Part shown: positions 9,707-35,080 of the stretch, piece after piece
How the letters are laid out: each line of letters starts with the position of its first letter
Numbering within the stretch: the stretch's first letter is position 1
Assembly: GCA_950096965.1 (NCBI GenBank)
Contig: CATNCV010000001.1
Location: 323 to 64,322, forward strand
Length of the DNA: 64,000 nucleotides
DNA from: an uncultured Clostridiaceae bacterium
GTDB taxonomy: Bacteria > Bacillota > Clostridia > TANB77 > CAG-508
Direction: 5' to 3'
Notes under the pieces: model-generated
Database searches by the model: none
What the model was told of the DNA's origin: nothing
Seen by the model: only the letters and a program-made list of their open reading frames with translations
Program-made: the position numbers and the translations under genes

Positions 9707-9743
9707 GTTCCCATTCCCATTGGGGACGTTTCCTAATGGGAAA
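9707..9743. repeat. copy A of a short inverted-repeat element (GTTCCCATT..GGGGACGTTTCC..AATGGGAA)
   Basis: GTTCCCATTCCCATTGGGGACGTTTCCTAATGGGAA directly after the mgtA stop. Its 30-nt core is the exact reverse complement of 35050-35080 and is related to 25845-25877. Confidence 0.5.
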
Positions 9744-9878
9744 TCTGTCACTTTTGAGAACTTAAGCTTAAAATTAAAATTCACAGCAAAAAAAGAAATT
9801 GTAGGATTTTATATCTAAAATAGATACCTAAAAAATCTGTGCCGATTATAACCTTTTTTATTTTTTAATTGAAAAATA

Positions 9879-9907
9879 TTGACAAAATAAATAATAAAAA
9901 ATATAAT
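9879..9907 (+). promoter_or_regulatory. sigma-A type promoter for the metK leader
   Basis: TTGACA (9879-9884), 17-bp spacer, TATAAT (9902-9907). Confidence 0.5.
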
Positions 9908-9916
9908 GGCTATAAT

Positions 9917-10070
9917 ATGTTATCAAGAGTGGACGAGAGAATCGGCTCAATGACTCCACAGCAACCTATAAAATAAGGTGCTAATACCGACAAAGCATAA
10001 CGCTTTGGCTGATAATTTTCATAAAACGAAAATGTTAACCTTTGGCGTTGTAAACCAAAGGTTTTTGCTA
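9917..10070 (+). promoter_or_regulatory. SAM-I (S-box) riboswitch with terminator, 5' leader of metK
   Basis: GTTATCAAGAG..GAGAGAATCGGCTCAATGACTCC..GCAACC..GGTGCTAATACCG..GGCTGATAA matches the S-box P1-P4 consensus, and the P1 arms pair (TTATCA / TGATAA). It is followed by the AACCTTTGG..CCAAAGGTTTTT terminator at 10037-10066 and sits directly upstream of metK. Confidence 0.75.
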
Positions 10071-10304
10071 TAAAAAAGTCATTTTATAAGGGCATCATTT
10101 GTGAGAATAACAATAATGCAAGACTCAACTCGCCCTTTTCTTATTAATAAATATTCTTGAATAACATACAAATAATAGGAACAAAGAGGAATAAAAAAGA
10201 GGATATGCATCAAACTAACAATAAAACAAAATAGTATAACTGATTTAAAATAAGCACACAAAATCTAACCGCTGACTTCCCAAAAAAGAAAGAAGGAATA
10301 AAAT

Positions 10305-11411
10305 ATGAAAAAATTTTTCACATCAGAAAGTGTAACAGAAGGTCACCCAGATAAACTATGTGACCTAATTTCAGATAGCATTTTAGATAGCTATTTAGAA
10401 AAAGATGAAAATTCAAGAGTTGCAGTAGAGACATTTGCATCAAAAGACCTAATAGTAGTAGCAGGGCAAATAACATCAAAAGGAGAAGCCCAAATAGAAG
10501 AGCTAGTAAGAAAGATGATTAAAGAAATAGGTTATGATAATAGTAATTTAGACATAGATTATAGAACATGCAAAATAATAACAAATATAACAAAGCAAAG
10601 CCCAGACATAGGAATGGGAGTAGACATAGGTGGAGCAGGAGATCAAGGCATAATGTTTGGTTATGCTTGTGATGAAACTAAAAATTATATGCCATATGGG
10701 GTAGATATGGCACATAAATTATCAAAAGAACTAACAAATGCACGAAAAGAAGGAAAAATAAAAGGACTAAGGCCAGATGGAAAAGTACAAGTTACAGTAG
10801 AATATGAAAATACACAAGTAAAGAGAATAGACACAATACTAATATCCACACAACATGAAGAAAATGTGGATATTGAAAACTTAAAGCAAGAAATAATAAA
10901 AAAAATAATAAACAAAATAATACCAATAAGTATGATAGATGATAACACAAAAATATATATAAATCCAACAGGGAGATTTGTAATAGGAGGTCCATTAGGA
11001 GATACGGGTCTAACAGGAAGAAAAATAATAGTAGATACTTATGGTGGCTACGCAAGACATGGTGGAGGAGCATTTTCAGGAAAAGATGCAAGTAAAGTAG
11101 ATAGGTCAGCAGCATATATGTTAAGACACATAGCAAAAAACGTAGTAGCAAATGGATATGCAAAAAAATGCGAAATACAAATATCATATGCAATTGGAAT
11201 TAACAAACCAACATCAATATTAGTAGAAACATTTGGAACAAATACAATACCAGAAGAAGAAATAGTAGAAAAAATAAAAAATAAGTTTGACTTGAGCCCT
11301 AAACGGAATAATAAAATACTTAGGGCTAAATAAGCCAATTTATACAAAAACAACAAATTATGGACACTTTGGAAAAGAAGAATTAGAGTGGGAGAGAATT
11401 ATAGAACTATA
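10305..11411 (+). pseudogene. metK: S-adenosylmethionine synthetase (MetK), disrupted by a +1 frameshift: extra C at ~11304 before a Gly codon
   Basis: N-terminal MKKFFTSESVTEGHPDKLCD..GGGAFSGKD is full MetK. Frame 1 stops at 11333 after ...[15 protein letters not shown]. The next frame continues [35 protein letters not shown] to 11411, which is the conserved MetK C-terminus. Deleting one C in CCTAAA[C]GGA restores a single 368-aa ORF. Confidence 0.85.
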
Positions 11412-11446
11412 AAGTACAAAATTCAAAATTTATAAAGTATAAAAAG

Positions 11447-11478
11447 AACCTTCACTATTTTGAAGTGAAGGTTCTTTA
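11447..11478. terminator. bidirectional intrinsic terminator
   Basis: GAACCTTCACTATTTTGAAGTGAAGGTTC hairpin flanked by A/T runs, between convergent genes. Confidence 0.6.
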
Positions 11479-11490
11479 GGCTTTTTAAAA

Positions 11491-11865
11491 TTAACTTAAA
11501 ATTTTAAAGTTTGTGCTAAGTAAGTCGACTGCACACATCATTGAATGTTCATCCATAGGTGAAGAGGTATTCTCTTCATAAACAACATATGAATAAACTG
11601 TGTTTTTACAAAAAACGAGATCTGCTGGCTTCCCATTATAATGAATAAGCTTAGAAGGAAGACCTACTATGATGGCAACGTAGTTATCCTTGTCATTTTC
11701 ACGAATTAGAATAAAACAACGTGCACTTTTCGGCAAGCCATTAAGAGAAGGATAATTCTTCTTATTATAAGGATAAGTCTTGTCATTAGTTTCCATTATA
11801 GCATGTAGTTCATACTTATCCTCTTTGTATCCAGTTTCAAAAGTACAAAGTGCAATACTACCCAT
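11491..11865 (-). CDS. hypothetical protein
   Basis: 124-aa ORF with coding-like composition. No motif recognised. Confidence 0.45.
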   Translation of the reverse strand: MGSIALCTFETGYKEDKYELHAIMETNDKTYPYNKKNYPSLNGLPKSARCFILIRENDKDNYVAIIVGLPSKLIHYNGKPADLVFCKNTVYSYVVYEENTSSPMDEHSMMCAVDLLSTNFKILS

Positions 11866-12068
11866 AAAAGCTCCTTTCTGCTTAATATAAGCATAAAGAC
11901 TAAAAAATTAATAAACTACAGATATATTTTACATAATATTTTGAAAAATGTCAAGACAATTTCTGAATTTGTGTAAGACGTATTGCATAATTTTACATAA
12001 TTTGATATAATTTTACTGTAATTAGTTTCATATAAAAGTTTAAATTAAAATTTTTAGGAGGGTAAAAT

Positions 12069-12713
12069 ATGCATATTTTTCTTATCAGACATGGAGAGTC
12101 AATGGCGAATAATGGAAGTAACTATGTTAAAAGAATACCAGATCATTTAGTACAACTAAGTGATGTAGGAAAAAAGCAGGCATATGATGCAGGAGTATGG
12201 CTAAAAAAATACTGCAAGCAACAGGCAGTAAGCTTAGAAAATGCAAGAATATGGCGTAGCCCTTATTTGAGAACAAGGCAGACATCAGAGGAGTTTAATA
12301 AATCTCTTAATATATCAGATATAAGAGAAGATATAACTCTTGTAGAGCAACAATTTGGATTATTTGATTCAGTACCAGAAGAAGAATGGGGAAAATTATT
12401 TCCAAAGGAATATGAAGAATATGAGCGCCAAAGAAATAACTATGGCAAATTCTATGCAAGACTTCCATTAGGAGAAAGTCCATTTGATGTAGCAGTTCGT
12501 GTACATCAATTTATGGGAACGATTCATCGTGACTATGAAAAACATGGCATAGATACTTTATTCATATTTACACATGGAACAACTTTAAGAACCTTTCTTT
12601 TAAGATGGTTTCACTACTCACCAGAATGGTACCATGAAGAGAAAAATCCAAAAAATTGTTGGATAAGGGAAATTAAAGATGGGAAAGATTGTGGATATAT
12701 TAATTTACATTAA
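12069..12713 (+). CDS. histidine phosphatase family protein (phosphoglycerate-mutase-like)
   Basis: LIRHGES.AN near the N-terminus is the catalytic RHG motif of the histidine phosphatase superfamily. Confidence 0.75.
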   Translation: MHIFLIRHGESMANNGSNYVKRIPDHLVQLSDVGKKQAYDAGVWLKKYCKQQAVSLENARIWRSPYLRTRQTSEEFNKSLNISDIREDITLVEQQFGLFDSVPEEEWGKLFPKEYEEYERQRNNYGKFYARLPLGESPFDVAVRVHQFMGTIHRDYEKHGIDTLFIFTHGTTLRTFLLRWFHYSPEWYHEEKNPKNCWIREIKDGKDCGYINLH

Positions 12714-12715
12714 TC

Positions 12716-12752
12716 AAAGGAACCTTCGTATAATAGCGAAGGTTCTTTTTGA
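12716..12752 (+). terminator. intrinsic terminator
   Basis: GGAACCTTCGTATAATAGCGAAGGTTCTTTTT. Confidence 0.55.
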
Positions 12753-12868
12753 CTATTTTTATATACATTTTTTTATAATAATGCTATAATAGAAGTGATA
12801 ACTAGTAAGTTATCGAGTAGTTAGAATTTTTATTCAAGAATAAATTTATTAAAAGGAGATATTTAAAG

Positions 12869-13606
12869 TTGTTTAATTTATTTAAAAATAGAGAAAAGAG
12901 CAATAACAGTAGGAAATATATTCATAATGAAATGTGTATAACGTGTAGTCATATATTGGAAGATGATAAACCAATTTTATATATTAAAAGAGAGGCGAAA
13001 GATGGAAAATATCAATTTTTATGTGAAAATCATAATCATGCTGATTCAGAAATAAGACTTATTGAAATTGAAGAGATCATAAAAAAGGATAAAGAAATTG
13101 AAAAAATATTGCCTTTAGAACTAGGATTAGAATTAAAAAGACAATATATTAGTGGCAAAGGATTAGAACTTAAAAAATTTATACAAGATGGTATTAATAA
13201 TATAATTCAAGAAGATATAAAAGATAACAAAGTTTTAATGACACAGTTATATAATAACGGTGAAATAGTATATTATAATGGTAGAAATGGAACTTGGTTT
13301 GATTGGGATATAAATGGTAAGACAAGTTGGTTTACAGTTTGTTTTGATGATAAAAACAGAATGGGATATATAAGTATTGCAATTTTTAAAGATGGAACTG
13401 TTAGTGGATATAAATGGGGAAATTATGGCAAGGATGAAGCAGAAAGTATTTCTTTAGGGAAGTTAAGTATAAAAGATACAGAATATCTTGTAAGATTATT
13501 ATTACAACAAACGGATGACAAAGGAATTTTTGATATAAATATAGATGATATAAATTGGGAAACTCCTATATTTTTAGAACCCTTGGAAGGTGCAGAAGAA
13601 ACATAA
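12869..13606 (+). CDS. hypothetical protein (TTG start)
   Basis: 245-aa ORF with an AAAGGAG RBS before the TTG. No family recognised. Confidence 0.45.
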   Translation: MFNLFKNREKSNNSRKYIHNEMCITCSHILEDDKPILYIKREAKDGKYQFLCENHNHADSEIRLIEIEEIIKKDKEIEKILPLELGLELKRQYISGKGLELKKFIQDGINNIIQEDIKDNKVLMTQLYNNGEIVYYNGRNGTWFDWDINGKTSWFTVCFDDKNRMGYISIAIFKDGTVSGYKWGNYGKDEAESISLGKLSIKDTEYLVRLLLQQTDDKGIFDINIDDINWETPIFLEPLEGAEET

Positions 13607-13678
13607 TAGATATTATAAAGACATAAGAATTGATTATAAAAGTAATCAATAAATTACAATTTCGGGGAGTCATATAAT

Positions 13679-13828
13679 ATGGAAACAAAAGTTATAAATT
13701 ATCAAACAAAATTTAACATATATGGGGATTATTCAAAATATACAAGTAAGCCATTGAAAGACTTTATATATGAGAGCAACAAAGGAAAAGATATACTTTT
13801 TGTAGAAGATGAAGAGTTAAGATGTTAA
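13679..13828 (+). CDS. small hypothetical ORF (49 aa)
   Basis: METKVINYQTKFNIYGDYSKYTSKPLKDFIYESNKGKDILFVEDEELRC. A GGGGAG RBS lies 8 nt upstream. The ORF is below the track length cutoff. Confidence 0.2.
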   Translation: METKVINYQTKFNIYGDYSKYTSKPLKDFIYESNKGKDILFVEDEELRC

Positions 13829-13871
13829 ACAAAAAAATAGACACACTTATAATTTGAAAGGAGATAAAGTT

Positions 13872-14231
13872 ATGGCAAGAATATTAAAAAATAAAGAATT
13901 AGCAAATACAAGATTAGCAACTAATTATGGTGGCTGGATGTATTGTGATAAATGTAATGAAAATATAGGTTATCTATGTTATTCAACTTATGATAGATTA
14001 GAATTAAAATATAAATGTAACTGTGGAAGTCAAGGAAGTGCAATATTAGACTTTGAAGATAGTAATCCAGGTCAAGAGTGTAATGATGAATTGCTCATCA
14101 TAAAAAATAGGTTTTGCTGTTCTAAAGATAATGAGCCTTTAATTACAATACTAGATAAAAAAGTGGCTAGTTATCAAATGAAAATCACTTGTAAATCTTG
14201 TAATAAAACATATAAAAAAGAGGTGAAATAA
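13872..14231 (+). CDS. cysteine-rich hypothetical protein
   Basis: Multiple CxxC pairs (CDKCNEN, CNCGS, CKSCNK). RBS GGAGAT before ATG 13872. Confidence 0.45.
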   Translation: MARILKNKELANTRLATNYGGWMYCDKCNENIGYLCYSTYDRLELKYKCNCGSQGSAILDFEDSNPGQECNDELLIIKNRFCCSKDNEPLITILDKKVASYQMKITCKSCNKTYKKEVK

Positions 14232-14552
14232 ATGGATTTATTGTTAACACTATTGATTGGAATAGTTGCAGGAGTAATAGATATACTACCAATGATTAAA
14301 ATGAAAGTTGATAAATACTCAATACTATCAGCATTTGTATATTATTTAATAGTTCCTTTTGTTATCTTTGGAATTAATTGGTTTGGAAATCTATGGTGGT
14401 TAAGAGGTGGAGTTGTTTCTATACTTATGGCTATTCCAGTAATTATTCTAGTAGCAAAAGAAGATAAAAAAAGCCCAATAGCAATGACAATTATGTCTAT
14501 CGTTTTAGGAAGTATCATTGGAGTTGTAGGACATTTCTTAAATCTAATGTAA
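14232..14552 (+). CDS. small integral membrane protein
   Basis: 106 aa with three hydrophobic helices. Its ATG immediately follows the upstream TAA (stop-start coupling). Confidence 0.5.
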   Translation: MDLLLTLLIGIVAGVIDILPMIKMKVDKYSILSAFVYYLIVPFVIFGINWFGNLWWLRGGVVSILMAIPVIILVAKEDKKSPIAMTIMSIVLGSIIGVVGHFLNLM

Positions 14553-14572
14553 TTTATAAACTATAATAAGAA

Positions 14573-14607
14573 AGGACAAGTAATTAGCTTGAAAATTACT
14601 TGTCCTT
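14573..14607 (+). terminator. intrinsic terminator
   Basis: GGACAAGTAATTAGCTTGAAAATTACTTGTCCTTT. Confidence 0.55.
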
Positions 14608-14676
14608 TATGATATAATACATACAAATTTGTACAAACAAAAAACCTAATTAAATAATTTTAAAGGAGGTACAACT

Positions 14677-15258
14677 ATGAAAGTAATTGGAGTAACAGGA
14701 AAATCTGGAAGTGGAAAAACAACATTTGCTAAAAAGTTAGCAAAAAGGTTAAATGGTGTGTATGTAGACATAGATAGAATAAGCAAAAAGCCTTTAAATA
14801 AGCCCAATATTATACATATATTGTGTGAAAAATTTGGAAATGAAATATTAGATGAAAAAGGTAATATCGACACAAAAAAATTAGGAAGCATAGTTTTTTC
14901 AAAGGAAGAATGGCTAAATGAATTAATGAGAATAACCCAAAGTGATGCAGAACAAGAAATAGATGATATACTATCTAGAATAGATAATAATATAGTTATT
15001 TTAGAATGGATAAAGTTACCAATTAGCAAATATTGGCATGAATGTGATATAAAAATATTAGTAAAGGCAGATCATATAAAAAGGAAAAATAAAGTATTAG
15101 AAAGAGATAACATCTCAGAAGAATATTTTGAGAAAAGAGATTTATCAGCTATTTCCTATAAAGAAAGCGAATTTAACTATATTTTTGAAAATAACTACAA
15201 CAAAAAGGAAATGGAAGAAAATATTGATATTATAAGCCTAAAAATTATGGAGGACTAA
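14677..15258 (+). CDS. coaE: dephospho-CoA kinase
   Basis: N-terminal IGVTGKSGSGKTT P-loop. Overall CoaE-like layout (..FG.EILDEKGNIDTKKLGSIVF..) at the expected length. coaD lies nearby. Confidence 0.6.
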   Translation: MKVIGVTGKSGSGKTTFAKKLAKRLNGVYVDIDRISKKPLNKPNIIHILCEKFGNEILDEKGNIDTKKLGSIVFSKEEWLNELMRITQSDAEQEIDDILSRIDNNIVILEWIKLPISKYWHECDIKILVKADHIKRKNKVLERDNISEEYFEKRDLSAISYKESEFNYIFENNYNKKEMEENIDIISLKIMED

Positions 15259-15262
15259 AACT

Positions 15263-16006
15263 ATGAAATTAAAAGTATTAGGAACACAATCACCATATAA
15301 TACAAAAAGGCACAACTGCCCTGGTTTTTTAATACAAGAAGGTGAAAACTTGCTAATGATAGACTGTGGTAGTGGAACTCATAAAATGTTAAAATATCCT
15401 AAAGACTTGCAAAATTTATAAATAATTATAAGTCATTTACATAGAGACCACTATAATGACATTTATAATTTGCAATACGCATCATTTGTATTTCATAATC
15501 AAAAGAGACTTGATAACCCAATAAATATATATCTTCCACAATCACCAAATGCTATAAATGAAGACATAAGAGGCGAAAACAATTCTTTTGCGAATTATCA
15601 TGAAATTTCAGAAAATACAAAGATAAACATAGGAAGCATACAAATAACGTTTTGTAAAACAGACCACCCAGTAGAAACATATGCTATAAAGGTTAGTTGC
15701 AAAGGAAAAAATATAGTATATACTTCAGACACATCATTTTCAGCAAGAGATAAAATAGTAGAATTTGCAAAAGGAGCAGATTTATTAATATGTGAATCAA
15801 GTCTACTAGAAAAATATGTTTTTCCAGAAATTAATTCACACTTAACAGCAAAGCAAGCAGGAATAATTGCAAAAGAAGCACAAGTAAAAAAGCTAATGCT
15901 AACTCATTTCTGGCCAGAAGAATTGCCAAGAAAATATGTAAAAGAAGCAAAAAAAGAATTCTCAAAAGTGATTTTGGCAAAAGAAGGAAAATACAATATA
16001 ACCTGA
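15263..16006 (+). pseudogene. MBL-fold metallo-hydrolase (RNase Z / beta-lactamase-like) interrupted by an in-frame TAA at 15419-15421
   Basis: ATG 15263 and the track ORF 15470..16006 are in the same frame. The reading is KDLQNL*IIISHLHRDHYNDI, so the stop falls just before the HxHxDH metal-binding motif. N-terminal part is MKLKVLGTQSPY..LLMIDCGSG. Confidence 0.6.
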
Positions 16007-16082
16007 ATTTATACTAAAATAGTTCATAATGATAAAAATAAGATATTAAGTAGTATTGTTAGTAAAATTAAATAAGATAAAA

Positions 16083-16113
16083 CAAAAAATCCATTAGAAT
16101 AAATGGATTTTTT
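16083..16113. terminator. bidirectional terminator
   Basis: AAAAAATCCATTAGAATAAATGGATTTTTT between convergent genes. Confidence 0.55.
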
Positions 16114-16161
16114 GCTTTTATAATGTTTTGCTTAGGACAGTTTTACTATTATAGAATACTT

Positions 16162-16641
16162 TTATACCTTACTTTTCATTACTGCATTTAAAACATCTTT
16201 TGGAAGATATTTGGAAACATCCATACCATATTTAAGTAATTCCATAACTCCACTAGAACTAACAGTTCCATATTCACAAGCCCTAATATAAATAGTATCT
16301 AAACCAGAGTATTCTTTATTTTTAGCAGCTAGGCTTTCTTCATAAGGGTAATCAGTACCATTATTTCTGACGCCTCTTAAAAGTAATGTTGCATTATTAT
16401 CAAGAGCAGCCTTAAAAGTTAGTCCCTCATAGGTGATAACAGTTACATTAGAAATATTTTCATGAGCTAAAACCTTTTCAATAGCTTCTTTCATTAAGTC
16501 TTTATCAAACCTACGCTTTTTATCAGAATTGGTACCAATTCCAATAATAACCTTATCACAAATCCTAAGAGCCTGCTTAAGTACATGCAAATGTCCAATT
16601 GTAAAAGGGTCAAAGCTACCTGAATAAAAACCAACTTCCAT
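16162..16641 (-). CDS. coaD: phosphopantetheine adenylyltransferase
   Basis: SGSFDPFTIGHLHV matches the (H/T)xGH cytidylyltransferase motif of CoaD, at ~160 aa. Start taken at MEVGFYSG, which has an AAAGGAGG RBS. Confidence 0.8.
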   Translation of the reverse strand: MEVGFYSGSFDPFTIGHLHVLKQALRICDKVIIGIGTNSDKKRRFDKDLMKEAIEKVLAHENISNVTVITYEGLTFKAALDNNATLLLRGVRNNGTDYPYEESLAAKNKEYSGLDTIYIRACEYGTVSSSGVMELLKYGMDVSKYLPKDVLNAVMKSKV

Positions 16642-25609: not shown

Positions 25610-25778
25610 AATTATACCTCCTAAAATTATTTTAAAGGGTTACAGTTACATAATTTCAAAATATTATATCACGATTTAACAAAAAAACAAGAAAAAATGA
25701 TAAAAGTTTACACAAAATAATAAAAAATACCATAAAATGTAATATGAAATGAATTTTCAAATTAAATATATTCCTAAA

Positions 25779-25877
25779 AGGGACGTTATACCCAAAAAGG
25801 GCAGATACCCAAAAGGAGCAGATACCCCAAAAGGGACAGATACCCCAATTGGAAACGTCCCCAATTGGAATGGGAAC
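25779..25877. repeat. array of four ~17-bp direct repeats (GGG(N)CAGATACCCCAAAA) merging into copy B of the GGAAACGTCCCCAAT..GGGAAC inverted-repeat element
   Basis: Direct reading of GGGACGTTATACCCAAAAAGGGCAGATACCCAAAAGGAGCAGATACCCCAAAAGGGACAGATACCCCAATTGGAAACGTCCCCAATTGGAATGGGAAC, immediately upstream of the ABC ATPase gene. Confidence 0.5.
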
Positions 25878-25897
25878 AATAAAAAGGTAGGTGCGAA

Positions 25898-26642
25898 ATG
25901 AAAGAAGTTTTAAAAGTGCAAAATGTATCAAAAAAATATCAAGCAGACAATGGAGAAGTTGAAGCATTAAAAGACATAAGTTTTTCTATTGAAGAAGGCG
26001 AGTTTGTAAGCATTATTGGACCAAGCGGATGTGGTAAATCTACAATACTTTCAATTATTGCAGGTTTAGAAGAAAAAAGCTCTCGGAAATATAGAAATAG
26101 ATGGACAAATAGGTTATATGCTTCAAAAAGATAGCCTTTTGGAATGGCTAACCATTTATAGAAATGTAATGTTTGGATTGGAAATACAAAATTTGAAAAC
26201 CACAGAAAATGTACAATATGTGGATAACCTACTAAAAAAATATGGTTTATATGAATTTAAAGATAAGTATCCAAACCAGTTATCAGGAGGAATGAGGCAA
26301 AGAGCAGCATTAATTAGAACATTAGCTATAAAACCAAAAATATTACTATTAGATGAAGCCTTTTCAGCTTTAGACTACCAAACTAGAATAATGGTAACAA
26401 AAGATATTTACGATATTTTAAGAAATGAAGGTATTACATCACTAATAGTAACACACGATATTTCAGAAGCAATAAGTATGTCAGACAGAGTTATAGTATT
26501 AAGTAATAGACCAGCCACAGTAAAAGAAATTCATAAAATAGAATTTGAAATGGAAAATAGAACACCATTAAACTGCCGAGAAAGCCCTAAATTTAGCAAA
26601 TATTTTGATACTATTTGGAAAGGACTAGATGTACATGAATAA
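25898..26642 (+). pseudogene. ABC transporter ATP-binding protein (NitT/TauT/ThiZ-type), disrupted by a +1 frameshift at ~26084
   Basis: Walker [10 protein letters not shown], signature LSGGMRQR and Walker B LLLDEAFSALD span two frames. Frame 1 ends [12 protein letters not shown]. The other frame continues [21 protein letters not shown]. Removing the C in TCT[C]GGA joins them. Confidence 0.8.
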
Positions 26643-27436
26643 AGAAAAAAATATATCACAGGAAAGAAAAAAATACTTAAGAAAACAAATAAATAATAAA
26701 ATTTTAGTAAAAGTAGTTCAATTTAGTATTATTATTGGACTTATATTATTATGGGAAATACTTGCCAATAAAGGAATTATAGACAGCTTTATTATGAGTC
26801 AGCCTTCTAGAATAGTAAAAACATTTTTAAACTTATCACAAAATAATTTATTAGAACATATAAAAATAACATGTTTAGAAACACTAATAGGATTTTTACT
26901 AGGAACTTTTTTAGGTGCAGTTATAGCAATTATGTTATGGTGGTCAAAGTTCTTATCAAAAGTTGCAGAACCATTTTTAGTAGTGCTAAATAGCCTTCCA
27001 AAGGTAGCTCTTCGGGCCAGTTATAATTATATGGGTAGGAGCAGGAATGCCAGCAATTATAACAATGGCACTAATGATTTCATTAATAGTAACCATATTA
27101 GAAATACTAAATGGTTTCTTAAATACAGATAAAGAACTAATAAAAATGGCACAAACATTTCATGCAAATAAATTTCAAATTTTATCAAGAATAATAATAC
27201 CAGCTAATAAAGCAACATTTTTTAATTCACTAAAAGTAAACATAGGACTTTCACTAGTAGGAGTTATAACAGGAGAATTTTTAGTTTCAAAGGCAGGACT
27301 TGGATATTTAATAGTATATGGAGGTCAAGTATTCCAATTAGACTTAGTAATGACAAGCGTTATAATATTAGCAATTGTAGCATATGTAATGTATCAAGCA
27401 GTTGTTATATTAGAAAAATTTTTAATTAAAAAATAA
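26629..27436 (+). pseudogene. ABC transporter permease (NitT/TauT family), disrupted by a +1 frameshift at ~27013
   Basis: ..LNSLPKVAL then RASYNYMGRS (out of frame). The other frame reads GPVIIIWVGAGMPAIITMALMI.., which is the conserved permease EAA-loop region. Removing the C in CTT[C]GGG joins them. Confidence 0.8.
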
Positions 27437-27442
27437 AAACAG

Positions 27443-27775: not shown

Positions 27776-28864
27776 ATGGGATGGATAGTAGCATTAGTAT
27801 TAGCATTAATTGTTTGTAGAACTGTATTTTCATTTGTAATAAGTTGGCTTCGGAATGAAAAGACAAAGTATGATAAAGCCAAAAGTGAAACAAGTAGCAA
27901 TATGAGTTATGAACGTAGAAGATATGAGGAAAAGAGTAATGAAGTAGAGCAACAAGAAAAGAAAATTCTTATACTAAGTAAAATTGTTTCTATTTCTATA
28001 TGTGCTCTTATTGCAATAACTACGATTTTATCCTCAGTATATGTAATTGGAGAACAGAATTTGGCAATTGTTACAACATTTGGTAAGGCAGAGGCTGTTT
28101 CAGGTACAGGAATGCATTTTAAAATTCCTTTTATCCAAAATGTGAAAAAATTTGACAGTACCATTCAAGGCTTAGCAATTGGATACCAAGAAGAAGACAA
28201 TGAAAGCCAAGAAATGGATAGTCTTATGATTACCACAGATTTCAACTTTGTTAATGTGGACTTTTATGTGGAATACAGAATAAATGATGCTATTATGTAT
28301 GAATATGGTTCTTCAGATCCAGTAGGAATTCTAAGAAACATTTCACAAGCATCAATAAGAAACACAATAGGTTCCTATAAAGTTGATGATGTACTAACAA
28401 CAGGAAAAAGTGAAATTCAGTCTGTAATTAAAGCTGACATTATAAAGGAACTTGAAAAGAGGCAAACTGGGTTAATGTTAGTAAATGTTACTATACAAGA
28501 CGCAGAGCCGCCAACAACTGAGGTTTCAGATGCATTCAAAAGTGTGGAAAATGCTAAACAACAGGCTGATACCAACCGCAATGATGCTGAGAAATATCAA
28601 AATGAGCAGCTACCAAAAGCAAAAGCAGAGGCAGATGCAATTATACAAGAGGCAAATGCAAAGAAACAGGAAAGGATTGACGAAGCTAATGGTGAAGTAG
28701 CTCTTTTCAATGCAATGTATGAAGAGTATATAAAAGATCCAAACACTTCCAAAATCAGAATATATTATGAAACGATGGAAGAATTGATGCCTAATTTACA
28801 AATTATAGTAAATGGCACAAATTCAGAAATTAAACCTATAATTGTTCAGCAGGAGGGAAAATAA
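27776..28864 (+). CDS. hflK: SPFH/band-7 family protein, HflK-like
   Basis: N-terminal TM plus SPFH domain. It is adjacent to, and translationally overlaps, its HflC-like partner. Confidence 0.65.
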   Translation: MGWIVALVLALIVCRTVFSFVISWLRNEKTKYDKAKSETSSNMSYERRRYEEKSNEVEQQEKKILILSKIVSISICALIAITTILSSVYVIGEQNLAIVTTFGKAEAVSGTGMHFKIPFIQNVKKFDSTIQGLAIGYQEEDNESQEMDSLMITTDFNFVNVDFYVEYRINDAIMYEYGSSDPVGILRNISQASIRNTIGSYKVDDVLTTGKSEIQSVIKADIIKELEKRQTGLMLVNVTIQDAEPPTTEVSDAFKSVENAKQQADTNRNDAEKYQNEQLPKAKAEADAIIQEANAKKQERIDEANGEVALFNAMYEEYIKDPNTSKIRIYYETMEELMPNLQIIVNGTNSEIKPIIVQQEGK

Positions 28865-28865
28865 T

Positions 28866-29777
28866 ATGAAGATAAAGGGAAAAATAGTAGCTGTTGTAAT
28901 AACTGTAGTTTTTGCTGTTATATTTTTGAGTAGTACATATACACTAAAAGAAAATGAATTTGGTTTAATAAAGCAGTTTGGCAAGGTTGTAGAAACTAAG
29001 CAGGACGCAGGACTATACTTTAAAAAACCATTTATACAAAGTGTAATGAATCTACCAAAAGATGAACAATTATATGACTTAGCATCCTCTGATGTAATAA
29101 CATCAGACAAAAAGTCAATGATTGCCGATTGTTATGTCGTTTGGCAAATTATAGACCCACTAAAGTACTACCAAACACTTAAGTCTACATCTAATGCAGA
29201 AAGTCGAATAGACATTTTAGTGTATAATTCTATGAAAAATGTAATTTCATCGACAACACAAGATGAAGTTATTAGAGGAAAGGATGGTACACTCTCTGCA
29301 AAAGTAATGGAAAGCTTAAGTGGAAATTCTATAGAGCAATATGGAATCTCTATCAATTTGGTGGAAATGAAACTATTGGATTTGCCTGAAGATAACAAAG
29401 GTGCTGTGTACAGTCGTATGATTTCTGAAAGAAATAAAATAGCAGCACAGTATACAGCAGAAGGAGAGTCAGAGGCACAGCAAATCCGAAATGATGTTGA
29501 TTACCAGGTAAGAATAGTGCTATCAAATGCACAAAAAGAAGCTAAAACAATAATTGCTGAAGGTGAGGCAGAGTATATGAAAATTATACAAGATGCATAT
29601 AACTCACCAGATAGAAAAGAGTTTTATCAGTTTTTGAGAGGCTTAGAAGCAACAAAGACATCACTGTCTGAAGGAACTATGATAATAATTGATGATGAGT
29701 ACAAAATTATTGATAACTTAAAGCTTTCAGAAGGAGAGCAAAAAGTTATAGCTCCAACTCAAGATGTAGAAGAATAA
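28866..29777 (+). CDS. hflC: SPFH/band-7 family protein, HflC-like
   Basis: N-terminal TM, SPFH domain, and the C-terminal coiled-coil typical of HflC. RBS GGAGGG. Confidence 0.65.
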   Translation: MKIKGKIVAVVITVVFAVIFLSSTYTLKENEFGLIKQFGKVVETKQDAGLYFKKPFIQSVMNLPKDEQLYDLASSDVITSDKKSMIADCYVVWQIIDPLKYYQTLKSTSNAESRIDILVYNSMKNVISSTTQDEVIRGKDGTLSAKVMESLSGNSIEQYGISINLVEMKLLDLPEDNKGAVYSRMISERNKIAAQYTAEGESEAQQIRNDVDYQVRIVLSNAQKEAKTIIAEGEAEYMKIIQDAYNSPDRKEFYQFLRGLEATKTSLSEGTMIIIDDEYKIIDNLKLSEGEQKVIAPTQDVEE

Positions 29778-29781
29778 AAAT

Positions 29782-29813
29782 TAGGAACCCACAAAATTGT
29801 GGGTTCCTTTTTG
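29782..29813 (+). terminator. intrinsic terminator
   Basis: GGAACCCACAAAATTGTGGGTTCCTTTTTGGG. Confidence 0.55.
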
Positions 29814-29821
29814 GGAAAATT

Positions 29822-30034
29822 TTATTGAAAATAAGCCCAAACATAAGCATCTGCATATTCTTCGATATCTTTAAAAATTCCTTGAGAGATATCGTATTTT
29901 ACTCGATTAATAGCACTTTTAGCAAGTTTATAACACATTCCTTCAGGAATTTCACCACTAGATTTTTCATAAATAAGTAAAGTTAATTTGTTTTTATAAT
30001 CTTCATAAAAAGTATTGCTATTATTAGTATCCAT
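29822..30034 (-). CDS. small hypothetical protein
   Basis: ~70-aa ORF with a GGAGG RBS before MDTNNSN. Confidence 0.3.
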   Translation of the reverse strand: MDTNNSNTFYEDYKNKLTLLIYEKSSGEIPEGMCYKLAKSAINRVKYDISQGIFKDIEEYADAYVWAYFQ

Positions 30035-30101
30035 ATAATAACCTCCATTCAAACATTAGAAAAATAAATTAATAAAGTTACTTTATAGAATATAACAGTT
30101 A

Positions 30102-31931
30102 CTACATTCCTTCAACATTTAATTCCTCTGTTCCCTCAAGAACAAATTTACCATCTTTAATAATAAAAACTTTGTTACTATCACCAATAGCCACAATATC
30201 ACCTAATTCATAGTATGGAATAGTAATGTCAGTATGACAGCCAAAATATGAATTTTCATCTCTCTTAATAGAAACTTCATTATCCTTAGCAACTACTTCT
30301 TTGCCATCAGGGTTAAACACTTTTGTTTCCTCATCCATAGAATAACAAGTGTCACCAAATGCAAAATGAGGGCCAGTTTTTTCGGCTATAAGAATATCAA
30401 GCTTGTCATTAATATTATACTTGTTACCCATTACATAAGCAGTAGTATTTGTACCAATTGCAAATTCACCCATAGGTAAGGTTTTATGGTCATACAGCAA
30501 ATGTTCATTAATATATTCAGAATTTTCCTTTTCAGTAGTATAATTTTTACAACTATACTCTTTAATAAACCCATCTTCAATTAATAAGCATAAATCAGTA
30601 AACTTCCAACCATTAAGGTAAATTTGGGAAACATGAAGAGTACCATTTGTTCCTTTTAAAACAGGAGAAGTGAAAACTTCACCAACTGGAACATTTACAT
30701 CTGCGGTACAATTTTCAAACTTAGTTTGAGTATTAGGCTTTTCAAGTTTAGCAAGGCAAATGCATAAATCAGTTTTGTTACCATTTTTACCAGTTACATG
30801 AACTGTATCAGACTTATCAAGAACATCAATAATTTTCTGATGTATATTTTGATATTTTTCATTATCAAGAGTATTAACAACTATTGTATCATCAAAAATA
30901 CGCTCAAAGTCTTTTCCGATTTCAGGGCAAGGGTAGGAAATAATAGTAAAAGAGTTTTGACTCCTAATATAGTCCATATATAAAACAGAATACTTAGTAC
31001 CAAATGAACTATTTAATTCAGCAAGGTATTTATCTTTACTAAAAATTTCGGAACCATTTTTGGGAATGAAACGACTTTCACCAAAAGTTTCAATATAAAT
31101 AGGACCTGCATATTTCATAAAAGTATTTACATTGTCTTTTAGAGCTGACTCAAAGCAAAAAAGGTAATTTTTAACATAATCATCAGAAAGATAAAAATTG
31201 TAATCATATCTATGGTTATAATTCAACTGCTTATCAAATTCAGAATTATCATATAACCTAAGAACAACATCCAATTTTCCTTCTAATAATTCGCAAACTC
31301 TTTTAGCAACTTTTTCAAAGCCCATAGGGTAAAATAAACAAACATAGGTCTTTCTAGAAATGTCAGTTCCTGCACTACCAATTTTATTTAAGCCTCTTAA
31401 AAATGAATGCATTGTACAACTAGCAATAGAAGTAATTTTTTCATCAGCTACTTTATTAAAATAGTCAACAATTTGCATATGATTTTTAGTTACTTTTTTA
31501 CCATAATAGTATAAATAATGATAAGAATTTAAGTCTGAGCTAAAAACTACATTTCTAGTAGAATTATGAACAACAGTATTGTTTGCAATAATGTTATTAA
31601 CAGTAAGAATGACATTGCTACATCTTTCCAAAGTAATATTTTTTAAACTACTAATATCTGATACTTCAGACAAACTATTTAAAAATTCTAAAATATCATC
31701 ACATTGGTTATCTTTTAAACAAAAATGTGAATATGAGCCTAAAATCATATAAGATAAAAATGCACTAAATTTAGAATCTTCACAATCATTCAAATTAAGT
31801 ATAGGGCTAGCGTAAAATTGTTCCATTTTAAGCTGATGAGATTGTAATTCCTGTAAAGAAAGACTAGAAAAATCAGTATTATAAATCATTTCATAAAAGT
31901 CCTTTACTTCCTTAATAAAGTTAGTAATCAT
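30102..31931 (-). CDS. aminopeptidase-like protein (C-terminal region resembles M29/AmpS thermophilic metalloprotease) with a long N-terminal extension
   Basis: 609 aa. C-terminal GEFAIGTN..GPHFAFGD..GCHTDITIP resembles the M29 aminopeptidase core. The family assignment is tentative. Confidence 0.4.
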   Translation of the reverse strand: MITNFIKEVKDFYEMIYNTDFSSLSLQELQSHQLKMEQFYASPILNLNDCEDSKFSAFLSYMILGSYSHFCLKDNQCDDILEFLNSLSEVSDISSLKNITLERCSNVILTVNNIIANNTVVHNSTRNVVFSSDLNSYHYLYYYGKKVTKNHMQIVDYFNKVADEKITSIASCTMHSFLRGLNKIGSAGTDISRKTYVCLFYPMGFEKVAKRVCELLEGKLDVVLRLYDNSEFDKQLNYNHRYDYNFYLSDDYVKNYLFCFESALKDNVNTFMKYAGPIYIETFGESRFIPKNGSEIFSKDKYLAELNSSFGTKYSVLYMDYIRSQNSFTIISYPCPEIGKDFERIFDDTIVVNTLDNEKYQNIHQKIIDVLDKSDTVHVTGKNGNKTDLCICLAKLEKPNTQTKFENCTADVNVPVGEVFTSPVLKGTNGTLHVSQIYLNGWKFTDLCLLIEDGFIKEYSCKNYTTEKENSEYINEHLLYDHKTLPMGEFAIGTNTTAYVMGNKYNINDKLDILIAEKTGPHFAFGDTCYSMDEETKVFNPDGKEVVAKDNEVSIKRDENSYFGCHTDITIPYYELGDIVAIGDSNKVFIIKDGKFVLEGTEELNVEGM

Positions 31932-32335
31932 ATATATAACCTCCTATAATAAAATTATATTGTTAGTAAGTAATATAACATAATATTATATATATTGCAA
32001 TAAATTTATAATGTTTTTACAAAATAACGACTTTAAATGCTACACTTCAGAGCTTAGAAGTATTCTATTTTTACCTTAGGAGGGCAATTACTTAGGAATG
32101 CATAAGGAAATTTACCCAATTATGTGCTATATACATATACCTTAAATTTTGTAGTAGTATCAAAATGAGTATTTGACACCAATTGCACATTTCGATAAGA
32201 ACAAATTACTAAATTTTTTATAAAGTAATATTTAAACATTTAAATTCCAATATTAAGTTACGTTTACAAAAAAAATGAATACAATATATAAGAATGCAAA
32301 TAGCATCAAAAACAAAAAGAAAGGGGAATACAAAA

Positions 32336-33349
32336 GTGAAAAAAACTTTAAGTATAGCAATCATTATTGTACTTATAATAATAGTAGCAGGGGTTACTAT
32401 TTATTTTGCAACAAAAGATAATGAAAAAGATGTAGCTTCATTAAAGAAAATTAATGTAAATGAGGTTACAAGGTCAGTATTCTATGCGCCACAATATGTA
32501 GCAATAGCAAAAGGATATATGGCAGAAGAAGGGCTAGAAATAGACCTTACAACTGGTCAAGGTGCAGACAAAGTTATGACAGCAGTACTAGCAGGTCAAA
32601 GTGACATAGGTTTTGCAGGACCAGAAGCATCAATATATATATATAATGAAGGTAAAGAAGACTACTGCCAAGTATTTGCACAACTAACACAAAAAGATGG
32701 TTCATTTTTAGTAGCAAGAGAAAAAACAGACAATTTTAGCTGGCAAGACTTAAAAGGAAAAACAGTAATACCAGGAAGAAAAGGTGGAGTACCATATATG
32801 ACATTTGAATATGTACTAAAACAAAATGGAATAGATCCACAAAAAGACCTAATATTAGATGACAGTATAAAATTTGACTTAATGGCAGGAGCATTTTCAG
32901 GGGGAACAGCAGACTATGTAACATTATTTGAGCCAACAGCAACAATGACAGCAAATGCAGGAAAAGGTTATGTAGTAGCATCAGTAGGAGAAGCTTCAGG
33001 AGAAATACCATACACAGCATATTTTGCTAAAAAAAGCTATATAGAAGCAAATAGTGACACAATACAAAAGTTTACAAACGCAATATATAAAGGGCAAAAA
33101 TTTGTAGAAGAACACACAATGAAAGAAGTAGCAGAAGTAATAAAAGACTTCTTCCCAGATACAGATGTAGACTTACTAGCTACAGTATTACAAAGTTACA
33201 AAGACATAGATGCATGGAAAACAGTGCCAACAATGAAAGAAGAGTCATTTGAATTATTACAAAAAGTAATGCAAGAAGCAGGAGAACTATCACAAAAAGC
33301 ACCATTTGATAAAATAGTAAATAATTCATATGCAGAAAAAGTAAAATAA
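32336..33349 (+). CDS. ABC transporter substrate-binding lipoprotein, NMT1/THI5-like (SsuA/TauA/ThiY family)
   Basis: Signal peptide or TM helix, then an NMT1-like periplasmic-binding fold (VFYAPQYVA..GFAGPEA..). Start set to the GTG at 32336, which has an AAAGGGGAA RBS; the track ORF starts at 32294. Confidence 0.7.
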   Translation: MKKTLSIAIIIVLIIIVAGVTIYFATKDNEKDVASLKKINVNEVTRSVFYAPQYVAIAKGYMAEEGLEIDLTTGQGADKVMTAVLAGQSDIGFAGPEASIYIYNEGKEDYCQVFAQLTQKDGSFLVAREKTDNFSWQDLKGKTVIPGRKGGVPYMTFEYVLKQNGIDPQKDLILDDSIKFDLMAGAFSGGTADYVTLFEPTATMTANAGKGYVVASVGEASGEIPYTAYFAKKSYIEANSDTIQKFTNAIYKGQKFVEEHTMKEVAEVIKDFFPDTDVDLLATVLQSYKDIDAWKTVPTMKEESFELLQKVMQEAGELSQKAPFDKIVNNSYAEKVK

Positions 33350-33767
33350 GCACACTCCTCCATTCCAAAATGGTATGGAGGAGACCAATTTTTAAAAGAA
33401 CGAATTTTAACGAAAAGTTTTTTATAAAATATTATGAATTATGTTTACAATAAAACTAAAATATGCTATAATCAAAACATTCTATCTAGCACAATTTGTG
33501 CTTTTATAATTTAATCAAAAAAATTAAAATCAAATCATAATTTTAAATTAATTGAATTTAAATTCCAAGTTAAATCCAAAATTTAAATTTTAAAATAAAT
33601 AAGAAATAAAAAGGAATTGATATAGAAATTATATGTGAAATAACAAAATTAAGAAAGGAAGAAATAGAAAAAATAAAATTATAAAGTTTTATATAAATAA
33701 AATGTAAAATTTTAATTCCTAACTTCTAATACAAAATAAAATTATTATGAATTTTTAAAAACTAAGT

Positions 33768-33797
33768 ATTGACAAATAATACCAACATAATATATAA
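33768..33797 (+). promoter_or_regulatory. sigma-A promoter upstream of rpsU
   Basis: TTGACA..17 bp..TATAAT. Confidence 0.4.
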
Positions 33798-33882
33798 TAC
33801 AAAACGTGTACAAGAATTAAAAGTATACAAAAAATAAATCCCACACGAATAAAAGTGTAATACTGGAAGGAGGGGAATATTA

Positions 33883-34053
33883 ATGTCAGAAGTAAGAGTA
33901 AATAATGGAAATATAGAAGATGCCTTAAAAAGGTTTAAAAGACAATGCGCTAGAAATGGTGTTATACAAGAAGTACGTAAAAGAGAACATTATGAAAAAC
34001 CTAGTGTAAAAAGAAAGAAAAAATCAGAGGCAGCAAGAAAAAGAAAATTTTAA
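33883..34053 (+). CDS. rpsU: 30S ribosomal protein S21
   Basis: 56 aa, below the track cutoff. [56 protein letters not shown] is near-identical to the bS21 consensus. RBS GGAAGGAGGGG. Confidence 0.85.
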
Positions 34054-34384
34054 TGAAAAATAAGAGGTTGGAAGTTAGAGGTTAGAAATAAACAATAATT
34101 TTCAACCTTTTTGTATAGAAGCTAGAAACTGTAGGTTGGAAATTAAGTGAATACCTTCAAAAAATTAATAAATATAATTTGTGCAGAAAAAATAAAATAT
34201 AGAGGCTAAATTGTTAAGGAATACCAAAGAGGAATACCAAATTTCAACCAAAGCATAAAATAATTAAAGAGGATTATAGGAGCAAGCATGGCTCATAATG
34301 ACTTCGAAGAAAAGGCTTAAATGAAAAGTAAATAGTGAAGAGTAAATAATACAAAACTCTTCAAGTTTTGAGGAGGAAACAAAA

Positions 34385-34825
34385 ATGTTAAAAGAAAAAT
34401 TATTAGAAGATATGAAAATATCAATGAGAGATAAAAACACAGTTAGAAAAAATGTAATACAAATGGTAAGAGCAGCTATTTTGCAAGTAGAAAAAGATAA
34501 GCAAATAGAATTAACAGATGATCAAATAATAGATGTAATAGCGAAAGAATCTAAAAAAAGAAAAGACTCATTAGCAGATTACGAAAAAAGTGGTAGAGAA
34601 GAATTAATAGGACAAATTAATCAAGAAATTGAAATATTAGCAGAATACTTACCAAAGCCACTTTCAAAAGAAGAACTAGAAAAAATAGTTGAAGAAGTAA
34701 TAAAAAGTACAGGAGCAACAACAATAAAAGAAATGGGCATAGTAATGAAAACAGTAAAAGAAAAAGTAGGGGCAGCAGCAGATGGAAAAACAATAAATGA
34801 AATAGTAAAAAGCAAGTTAAATTAA
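34385..34825 (+). CDS. yqeY: GatB/YqeY domain protein
   Basis: 146 aa. Conserved rpsU-yqeY gene order. YqeY-like helical sequence. Confidence 0.8.
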   Translation: MLKEKLLEDMKISMRDKNTVRKNVIQMVRAAILQVEKDKQIELTDDQIIDVIAKESKKRKDSLADYEKSGREELIGQINQEIEILAEYLPKPLSKEELEKIVEEVIKSTGATTIKEMGIVMKTVKEKVGAAADGKTINEIVKSKLN

Positions 34826-35049
34826 GAGTTATTAATGGAGTATTAAACCAAACCACTCCCCCATGCTACTCTAAATATTATAAATACTACTATTTAATAT
34901 GAAAGATATTAATATTATTAAGTATAAAAAATGAAAAATGTACAAGAATGTCTTGTATATTTTTTGCTTTTTGTACTATAATATAAATGTTAAAATAAAT
35001 AGTAAATTTTAGTAAAATAATTAAAAATTATTTCCCAAAAGTGATGTTA

Positions 35050-35080
35050 GTTCCCATTAGGAAACGTCCCCAATGGGAAC
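35050..35080. repeat. copy C of the inverted-repeat element (exact reverse complement of the core at 9707-9743)
   Basis: GTTCCCATTAGGAAACGTCCCCAATGGGAAC sits 27 nt upstream of the M16 gene start. Confidence 0.5.

Follow-up and report, generated by a model that had tools for sequence, protein, structure and literature searches.

Repeat copies and genes in the window

We analyzed a 64,000-nt stretch of DNA from an uncultured Clostridiaceae bacterium (contig CATNCV010000001.1, positions 323 to 64,322; hereafter the window), in which a short dispersed repeat occurs in three copies, designated A, B and C. The 12-mer GGGGACGTTTCC is present exactly three times, at 9722-9733(+), 25851-25862(-) and 35060-35071(-). 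Shuffled sequences gave 0.34 matches to this 12-mer with two mismatches allowed and reached three matches in 0 of 100 cases, so that the three related copies reported in a preliminary description of this DNA are well founded. No fourth copy was detected in the window by approximate-match searches with each module of the repeat. Because the G+C content of the window is 27.7%, the G/C-rich blocks of the repeat are conspicuous.

In an alignment of 118 copies from this and related genomes (see below), each copy consists of three directional modules, A-B(n)-C, and the whole element is ~50-110 nt long. The limits of the three copies as first drawn were too short, and the full extents are given in Table 1 together with the neighboring genes. 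Copy A, which is read on the minus strand, lies directly after a gene for an MgtA-like P-type ATPase, and its C end touches the TAA stop codon of this gene (9704-9706) with a spacer of 0 nt, just as had been noted. Copies B and C are located in the 5' leaders of an ABC transporter operon and of an M16-family peptidase gene, respectively, and the C end of copy C is 23 nt (not 27 nt, as originally counted) from the ATG at 35104. An exact-sequence look-up with the M16 protein returned no match. As promoter-like blocks are conserved upstream of both copies, B and C are probably located inside transcribed leaders. A spurious small open reading frame (ORF) arising from the repeat was found at 25749-25901.

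Copies A and C had been described as exact reverse complements over 30 nt. The match is exact over 29 contiguous nt (9714-9742 versus 35051-35079), and 30 of 31 nt are matched only after removal of a 6-nt CCCATT duplication, which is indeed present in the C module of copy A. The array of four tandem units that joins copy B upstream of the ABC transporter operon was also recovered, with a period of 17-18 nt instead of a uniform 17 bp (TRF: 25788-25848, 3.4-3.5 copies). Hairpins were predicted for all three copies, with z-scores of -3.2 to -6.1, in agreement with the proposal that every copy is able to fold. However, GTTCCCATT, which had been taken for a terminus of the element, is instead the 3' end of a B unit, and the arms noted at first, GTTCCCATT...AATGGGAAC, reflect base pairing between the 3' ends of the last B unit and of the C module.

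Table 1. Coordinates of the repeat copies, their modules and neighboring features (positions are those of the window unless a sampled locus, designated by an L-number, is named)
Feature	Position	Strand	Remarks
P-type cation ATPase gene, MgtA-like	7103-9706	+	Pfam E1-E2_ATPase, Cation_ATPase_N, Cation_ATPase_C
Copy A, full element	9707-9761	-	C-B-A on + strand, one B unit; module matches: A-like TTCTCAAAAG, B GACAGATTTCCCA, C core exact
Copy A, C module	9707-9733	-	Minus-strand reading GGAAACGTCCCCAATGGGAATGGGAAC; 6-nt CCCATT/AATGGG duplication
Copy A, single B unit	9734-9750	-	Minus-strand reading TGACAGATTTCCCATTA
Copy A, A module	9751-9761	-	Minus-strand reading GTTCTCAAAAG; 1 mismatch to consensus
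Promoter-like block upstream of copy B	25705-25748	+	TTTACA ... TAAAAT/TGTAAT; kept in L060, L016 and L043 despite diverged flanks; consensus scan match 25709-25738
Copy B, full element	25771-25877	+	Fills 5' leader of ABC transporter operon; C end 20 nt from ATG at 25898
Copy B, A module	25771-25780	+	TTCCTAAAAG
Copy B, four tandem B units	25781-25850	+	25781-25798, 25799-25814, 25815-25832, 25833-25850
Copy B, C module	25851-25877	+	GGAAACGTCCCCAATTGGAATGGGAAC
ABC transporter ATPase gene, frameshifted	25898-26642	+	78 codons, remainder in other frame from 26118; ORFs, Pfam ABC_tran
Promoter-like block upstream of copy C	34953-34982	+	TTGTAT-N18-TATAAT; kept in L065; not flagged by consensus scan, -35 hexamer too weak
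Copy C, full element	35032-35080	+	In 5' leader of M16 peptidase gene; A 35032-35041, degenerate B 35042-35059, C 35060-35080
M16-family peptidase gene	35104-36366	+	Downstream of copy C
Canonical stem-loop and T-run	58378-58409	+	Right after stop codon 58375-58377; reverse element copy at this position in L093 and L038 (alignment)
Second palindromic family GGAAAGATTTGGGACGCGTCCAAAACTTTCC	L084 1405-1445, 2320-2355		Also L004, L017, L021, L040, L062, L067, L077, L087 and others

Structure, distribution and placement of the repeat family

Relatives of the repeat were sought by scanning one genome per species (GTDB; 596 Gb, in eight-kb tiles) with the core 20-mer GGAAACGTCCCCAATKGGAA. Matches were obtained in at least 99 tiles and, among the matches listed, all were in ~10 related metagenome-assembled genomes (MAGs) of uncultured Clostridiaceae/Clostridia, with at least 24 tiles in CANPTO and at least 21 in JAAVYV. 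By our own calculation, ~2 matches to a 20-mer would be expected by chance in a database of this size. The identity of MetK (S-adenosylmethionine synthetase) is 81-100% inside this clade and ~76% outside, and an initial suspicion that the DNA came from segmented filamentous bacteria was abandoned on these grounds. All copy and tile counts given for the family are lower bounds. Thus, the repeat is not restricted to three copies lacking conservation in relatives, a situation that the preliminary description had linked to chance or local duplication; as shown below, orthologous copies also occur at the same positions. A scan of viral contigs gave 0 matches to the element, and a phage-borne origin was rejected on this basis. 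The motif was not found to be described in the literature, in which literal searches returned only unrelated eukaryotic primers.

The aligned set comprised 118 copies with an exact core (115 from the 99 tiles listed and three from the window). Module A has the consensus (N)TTCCCAAAAG, module B, KGACAGAYWYCCCAWWW, is 17-18 nt long and present in 0-4 tandem units, and module C reads GGAAACGTCCCCAATKGGAAC or, in fuller form, GGAAACGTCCCCAAT(G/T)GGAA(C). The core is invariant over 20 nt throughout the set and contains an imperfect palindrome, GGAAACGTCCCCAATGGGAAC, whose pairing partner upstream is TTCCCATT or TTCCCA. Written out as GTTCCCATT-A-GGAAACGTCCCC-AATGGGAAC, this palindrome could form a stem-loop. 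At the position that would close its inner stem, 41% of copies have G and 58% have T, and the invariant core does not vary in compensation. Terminal inverted repeats (TIRs) of 7 bp, GTTCCCA...TGGGAAC, are present. The two strands differ in predicted stability: the G-rich strand, which is the one transcribed when the element is downstream of a gene, folds more strongly than the C-rich strand, which is the leader strand (-25.6 versus -16.6 kcal/mol in copy C and -45.4 versus -31 in copy B). The majority of copies are singletons with tandem direct B units, and inverted doublets were observed in L045, L082, L090 and L106 (9830-9890, REPIN-like). The sequence preceding the core is either AAAA or ATTW, and this variation was only weakly associated with 5' or 3' context (odds ratio 2.1, p = 0.09, copies non-independent).

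The placement of the family relative to genes is highly regular. Of the 118 copies, 96 border an ORF, and ~8 are situated in-frame within members of two ORF families. In 55 copies a convergent ORF has its stop codon 0-12 nt from the C end (0-1 nt in 40), and in 41 the C end is 11-48 nt upstream of a start codon, with the Shine-Dalgarno sequence (SD) within a few nt; when orthologues were collapsed, 31 independent stop-adjacent and ~22 start-adjacent loci remained. Measured to the nearest ORF of at least 100 codons, the median distance from the C side is 14 nt and that from the A side 206 nt, and an ORF lies within 30 nt of the C side in 56/83 copies and of the A side in 6/83. The stop codons touched by the element are TAG at 17 of the 31 loci, compared with a background of 26% (p = 0.0007), and never TGA. 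The stop junction reads TA|GTTCCC or TAA|GTTCCC, and many stop junctions are of the TA|GTTCCC or CTAG type. The junction TA was seen in only ~4/22 SD-adjacent loci; since the motif is not conserved there, the element does not include the stop codon. TAG or TAAG in front of GTTCCC was seen only at copies where the neighboring gene uses it as its stop codon. Neither a target-site duplication nor a conserved flanking motif was found at the two ends, both of which were examined, and the A-end flank is simply A-rich. The 0-1 nt abutment and the fixed polarity are accounted for neither by random insertion nor by a simple flanking target motif.

Genes next to the copies are unrelated in function (for example, the P-type ATPase, ABC transporter and M16 peptidase genes, pth, the RNase E/G gene, radA and disA). 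The intergenic DNA between inverted pairs of copies (L003, L004, L012, L021, L057, L069) is not homologous across loci, and these pairs are therefore not composite elements.

All three window copies were found at the same positions in genomes that are 84-96% identical. Copy A has orthologues in L019 and in L010, the latter with two B units; copy B has them in L060, L016, L025 and L043 (1-4 B units), and copy C in L065. The number of units varies among orthologues: in the ABC operon leader, the copies of the window and L060 carry four B units, those of L016 and L025 a single one, and the C module is duplicated in L043. Presence/absence of the element, which the preliminary description had proposed to compare among relatives, differs between species. 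After the gene ending at 58377, a canonical stem-loop with a T-run is found in the window at the position of a reverse copy in L093 and L038, and the last one or two codons of this gene differ among the three genomes. A leader copy in L026 is absent from the window, and the comparison of L022 with L039/L092 revealed differences in both directions. Within a GH15-like enzyme, the element constitutes an in-frame insertion of ~40 aa relative to the L104 orthologue. The peptide segment added by in-frame copies, FPLGTFPNG..., occurs in this enzyme and in a second ORF family. A conserved block beside a degenerate copy (TTCGAGCAAAGCGAG...) proved to belong to the coding sequence of the GH15-like gene.

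Some additional features were observed around the copies. In the operon of copy B, both the ABC ATPase and the permease are split by frameshifts (window 25898-27436). The ATPase frameshift is common to the independent assembly L060, and the gene is intact (247 aa) in L016 and L025; the frameshifted genomes, the window and L060, are those with the four-unit leader repeat. The frameshifted ATPase gene is probably a real pseudogene. Adjoining the A end of its ATPase-associated copy, L019 contains an insertion of ~470 bp (2180-2660; orthologous window position ~9762) that includes a small ORF and an SD of its own and is absent in the window and L010. Further downstream, an S-adenosylmethionine (SAM; S-box) riboswitch (9917-10018, +, 81.4 bits), preceded by a perfect promoter TTGACA-N17-TATAAT (9879-9907), is located upstream of the SAM synthetase gene, metK (10305-11333). 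An insertion of ~210 bp between the riboswitch terminator and the metK start (10075-10290) is absent in L019 and L010, and it ends with the A-module-like stretch TTCCCAAAAA (10277-10286) directly upstream of the SD and may be a remnant of an element copy. Elsewhere in the window, a 940-aa ORF (43757-46579) contains a near-perfect 45-bp tandem repeat (46259-46523, +, 5.9 copies, 95% matches) that encodes a repeated 15-aa segment.

A transposase gene flanked by the repeat

A candidate partner of the repeat was found in L015, where an ORF of 265 aa (1075-1872) lies between pth and the RNase E/G gene (rng). A reverse copy of the repeat follows the pth stop codon ~440 bp upstream of this ORF, and a forward copy overlaps the stop codon of the ORF itself. 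The protein matches Pfam Y1_Tnp (49.3 bits, cut-off 23), and its best NCBIfam model is that of REP-associated tyrosine transposase (RAYT; REP_Tyr_transpos, 61.2 bits), where REP stands for repetitive extragenic palindromic; the IS200 model scored 16.7. The same pth-RAYT-rng layout, with inverted flanking copies, is present in L008. The L015 protein carries an HVH (HUH motif) and an RYIHKNP motif. A profile built from 19 family members had a sole match in PDB, 4ER8_A (E. coli TnpA-REP), and the alignment matched both the HUH motif and the catalytic Tyr, whereas phmmer with a single RAYT sequence gave no match in PDB. An AlphaFold model of the protein (pLDDT 80.4) also had 4ER8_A as its best fold match (E 5e-6, TM 0.68 on target), ahead of IS608 and ISDra2 TnpA. 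The protein (265 aa; homologues 250-290 aa) is longer than 4ER8 (165 aa), and the model places helices at residues 192-260, beyond the Y1 core. A helix-turn-helix (HTH) domain, PF13384 (HTH_23), is precomputed on three homologues (P0139, P0215, P0237), and one homologue is named RayT by JGI; Pfam gave no HTH on the L015 protein itself at E<=0.01.

Orthologues of this RAYT with 61-70% identity are located upstream of radA/disA in L104/L105, L106 and L103. In L104/L105 and L106, the RAYT genes are flanked by inverted copies of lineage-specific variants of the repeat; in L103, a forward copy overlaps the 3' end of the gene, and the nearest reverse copies are ~1.2 kb upstream inside the GH15-like gene. 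These variants keep the core AAAGGAAACGTCCCCAATG and differ in modules A and B, i.e., the repeat and the RAYT diverge together. Paralogues were associated with repeats of their own. That of L054 (38-42% identity) has two copies of its own palindrome variant at the 3' end, the 5' side being beyond the end of the locus, and that of L084 (29% identity) lies between copies of a second repeat family, GGAAAGATTTGGGACGCGTCCAAAACTTTCC. Of this second family, 21 dispersed copies were counted in the sampled loci and none was found in the window. One repeat family per RAYT is the pattern of REPtrons.

Two further observations concern the RAYT loci. The MAGs of L054 and L103 are 99.7% identical from radA on, and their RAYT alleles at the same locus (L054 1-660 versus L103 10001-10810) are 38% identical; the repeat variant between RAYT and radA is also different. 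This break of identity at the repeat suggests that RAYT and repeat were replaced as a cassette. In addition, many close RAYT homologues are on contigs of ~1 kb, as expected if flanking repeats break short-read assemblies.

Nature of the family and alternative explanations

These data very probably identify the repeat as a lineage-specific REP-type family, TIRtron-like and non-autonomous, with a cognate RAYT; it is of a known kind, and no description of this member was found in the literature searched. The main characters of REP-RAYT systems were found, except for the classical GT[AG]G tag: a RAYT-clade enzyme, inverted flanking copies, a hairpin palindrome, a dispersed and mostly extragenic family, one family per RAYT, and intragenic in-frame copies. 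The suggestion in the preliminary description of a REP-like or MITE-like miniature repeat (MITE, miniature inverted-repeat transposable element) is thus sharpened to a REP-type family whose RAYT is flanked by the repeat. The loci and collections examined support neither a MITE of the DDE type nor an Rfam family, a phage-borne element or the operator of a regulon.

It is most likely that the chromosomal, syntenic Y1/HUH tyrosine transposase of the TnpA-REP clade generates and maintains the repeats in trans. TnpA-REP and the TnpA proteins of IS200/IS605 act on hairpins in single-stranded DNA (PMC3479197, PMC6006769). By analogy with E. coli TnpA-REP and IS608 TnpA, the RAYT would recognize the core hairpin in single-stranded DNA and would cut and rejoin the DNA there, thereby spreading or maintaining copies. 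The B arrays would lengthen and shorten by replication slippage.

REPtrons, TIRtrons with their TIRYTs, intragenic REPs and the association of one repeat family with each RAYT have been described previously (PMC3733652, PMC6006769, PMC5581495). Our family resembles the REP/REPIN-RAYT systems of E. coli, Pseudomonas and Stenotrophomonas (PMC2817692, PMC3116915, PMC3479197, PMC5581495, PMC6006769) in that it consists of short imperfect palindromes, present in tens or more copies per genome and mostly extragenic. As with REPs, the copies are often just downstream of genes, and some are intragenic and in-frame, as in Di Nocera et al. (PMC3733652). The Y1/HUH gene of the TnpA-REP clade, flanked by inverted copies at a conserved syntenic position and with one family per paralogue, corresponds to a REPtron. 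However, in contrast to REPs, this family lacks the GT[AG]G tag at the hairpin foot, is built directionally as A-B(n)-C with tandem direct units of 17-18 nt, and has ~35% of its copies in 5' leaders flush with the SD, with a strict polarity of the C end to the ORF. The RAYT differs from E. coli TnpA-REP by a C-terminal helical extension of ~125 aa, and the host is an AT-rich uncultured member of the Clostridiaceae. Firmicutes do not appear among the hosts of GTAG or CGTC REPs in the surveys consulted (PMC3733652), and Bertels et al. report RAYT Group 1 in Clostridia with only low counts of flanking 16-mers (PMC5581495).

The family also resembles TIRtrons and TIRYTs (Di Nocera et al. 2013, PMC3733652), which correspond to TnpA-Y1 subclass 2.1 (Quentin et al. 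2018, PMC6006769); for some classes of TnpA-Y1, repeats without GTAG are likewise reported in the latter study. By features rather than phylogeny, the two share a RAYT that is longer than the canonical one and has a C-terminal HTH (HTH_23 on homologues, a helical domain in the model), flanking of the gene by non-GTAG inverted repeats, and a moderately abundant dispersed family. The GGGGWSAS-like motif of TIRtrons is matched in part. Some B units read (G)GGGACAG, e.g., GGGGACAG in L072/L095, whereas the consensus of module B does not go beyond AGGGACAG or AGTGACAG, and in the invariant core, GGGGACGT, GGGGWSAS is broken at position 7. Moreover, the present repeats are clearly hairpin-forming, whereas Quentin et al. 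found no REP-like hairpins beside the HTH-bearing subclass 2.1 genes (PMC6006769). Rickettsia palindromic elements RPE-4 and RPE-6 have been classed as CGTC-tagged REPs (PMC3733652), and RPEs resemble our family in having in-frame copies that add peptide to conserved genes and in occurring in small AT-rich genomes. However, RPEs are longer, have no dedicated transposase and carry CGTC at the terminus, whereas here CGTC is internal to the core, a RAYT is present and copies are mostly extragenic. Tandem B units and gene-boundary polarity are not described for TIR families. In layout only, the A-B(n)-C build recalls the BOX elements of Streptococcus pneumoniae (boxA-boxB(n)-boxC), modular and directional repeats of a Firmicute that have variable internal units and pairing terminal modules and are intergenic, often near gene starts. 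BOX modules measure 45-59 nt, compared with 10-27 nt here, and we know of no dedicated transposase for BOX.

It should be noted that several observations weigh against assignment to a REP-RAYT system. No RAYT gene is present within the 64-kb window, the RAYT being known from sister MAGs only, and the NCBIfam score of the L015 protein falls below the equivalog cut-off of 80. At neither end of the element was GTAG or GTGG found in the 118-copy alignment. REPINs and BIMEs are inverted doublets or alternating clusters, whereas this family is mostly singletons. Evidence for its mobility is indirect: the majority of copies occupy conserved orthologous positions in genomes that are 84-96% identical, and no filled/empty pair clean enough to show a precise junction or a flanking signature was found among the compared loci; strain-level loci with identical MetK also contained no informative pair of this type. 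Orientation relative to gene direction is mixed (55 versus 41 copies), whereas a simple lagging-strand mechanism of the IS608 type would predict a bias toward one strand. Finally, the sharp polarity, with the C end at a stop codon or SD, points to selection or targeting beyond the REP model.

It is possible, and we propose this only tentatively, that transcribed copies act on mRNA as a secondary effect. Liang, Rudd and Deutscher reportedly described in 2015 mRNA-level effects of REPs that lie within 15 nt of stop codons. E. coli REPs stabilize upstream mRNA and attenuate transcription (bioRxiv 10.64898/2026.03.23.713779). By analogy, the G-rich hairpin flush to a stop codon might be a 3'-end barrier, an attenuator or a ribosome-coupled regulator, and the C-rich strand might form a weaker leader hairpin just upstream of the SD. 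A 3'-end barrier, partial attenuation or a ribosome-coupled effect is plausible, whereas a full intrinsic terminator is unlikely because there is no U-tract, copy A is not scored and doublets occur in promoter-less spacers. In 47 scorable stop-adjacent reverse copies, no U-tract followed the element (T fraction of 0.31 in the next 8 nt); the T-richness beyond leader copies merely mirrors the A-rich sense strand, and the only internal UUUU is between the B' and A' modules. Copy A was not scored terminator-like. The minus strand of copy C does score as a terminator, but it faces away from any gene end. Neither the attenuator suggested earlier nor a riboswitch is supported as a defined class: at gathering thresholds, Rfam detected only the SAM riboswitch at 9917-10018 in the whole window, with permissive settings the three copies yielded no match or matches no better than chance (E 0.5-0.9), and in 16 loci with unclassified copies only two tRNAs were found, both in one locus, with no RNA family beside the element.

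An unlikely extension of the REP-RAYT assignment is that the repeat has been domesticated as a gene-boundary element, which the RAYT maintains and which is inserted or retained in a manner coupled to translation signals. If so, the G-rich RNA hairpin at the stop codon would set the 3' end of the mRNA or influence the release of ribosomes, the C-rich strand at the SD would form a permissive leader, and a REP family would cap ORFs in a small AT-rich genome and could replace canonical terminators.

Less probable still is a repeat that is mainly a host-selected RNA element, kept by selection and not by transposition, with an incidental link to RAYT. In reverse orientation it would act after stop codons as a 3'-end hairpin, whether terminator, attenuator or exonuclease barrier, and in forward orientation as a leader structure close to the SD. 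Such a function would fit the C end facing the ORF in both contexts, the 40 copies abutting a stop codon by 0-1 nt, the more stable folding of the transcribed G-rich strand, the canonical terminator of the window in the exact position of the element in L093 and L038, the conservation of positions across species and the effects of E. coli REPs on mRNA noted above. However, the lack of a U-rich tract after reverse copies weighs against it, as does copy A, which is not terminator-like. In L045, palindromic doublets fill whole spacers between co-directional genes and leave no room for a promoter, and therefore cannot be full terminators. In-frame copies inside ORFs and the G or T at the stem-closing position, uncompensated in the core, are also difficult to reconcile with an RNA element, and the flanking of RAYT genes and their co-divergence with the repeat can hardly be called incidental.

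We consider it very improbable that the family is a classical MITE derived from a DDE-type insertion sequence (IS), mobilized via the 7-bp TIRs and leaving a target-site duplication. Short TIRs do exist and, as IS630/Tc1-type elements target TA or CTAG, the stop junctions are reminiscent of such targets. However, the A end shows no matching TA or other duplication, and the junction TA is not conserved in the SD-adjacent copies. In addition, ~0.9 Mb of sequence around the copies contained no near-identical multicopy gene or IS, the long inter-locus repeats being all orthologous synteny, and the variable tandem units and RAYT association suit a REP-type family better.

Least probable of all is the operator or RNA-binding site of an uncharacterized global regulator that the preliminary description had also considered, since, although an invariant core and the location of about a third of copies in 5' leaders beside the SD would suit a regulon, the neighboring genes are functionally unrelated, about half of the copies follow genes and have the opposite orientation, a number of copies are within ORFs, the copy number per site varies among orthologues, and no Rfam family matches.

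REP/RAYT systems have so far been studied mostly in Proteobacteria, and the family described here is an abundant hairpin-forming repeat tied to a RAYT in uncultured gut Clostridiaceae. Such repeats are likely to break MAG assemblies, to create spurious small ORFs and to add peptide segments to enzymes, and the variable number of B units could serve in strain typing. With its sharp placement rule, invariant core and small size, this REP-type family offers a convenient system for studies of RAYT site choice and of REP effects on neighboring mRNAs.

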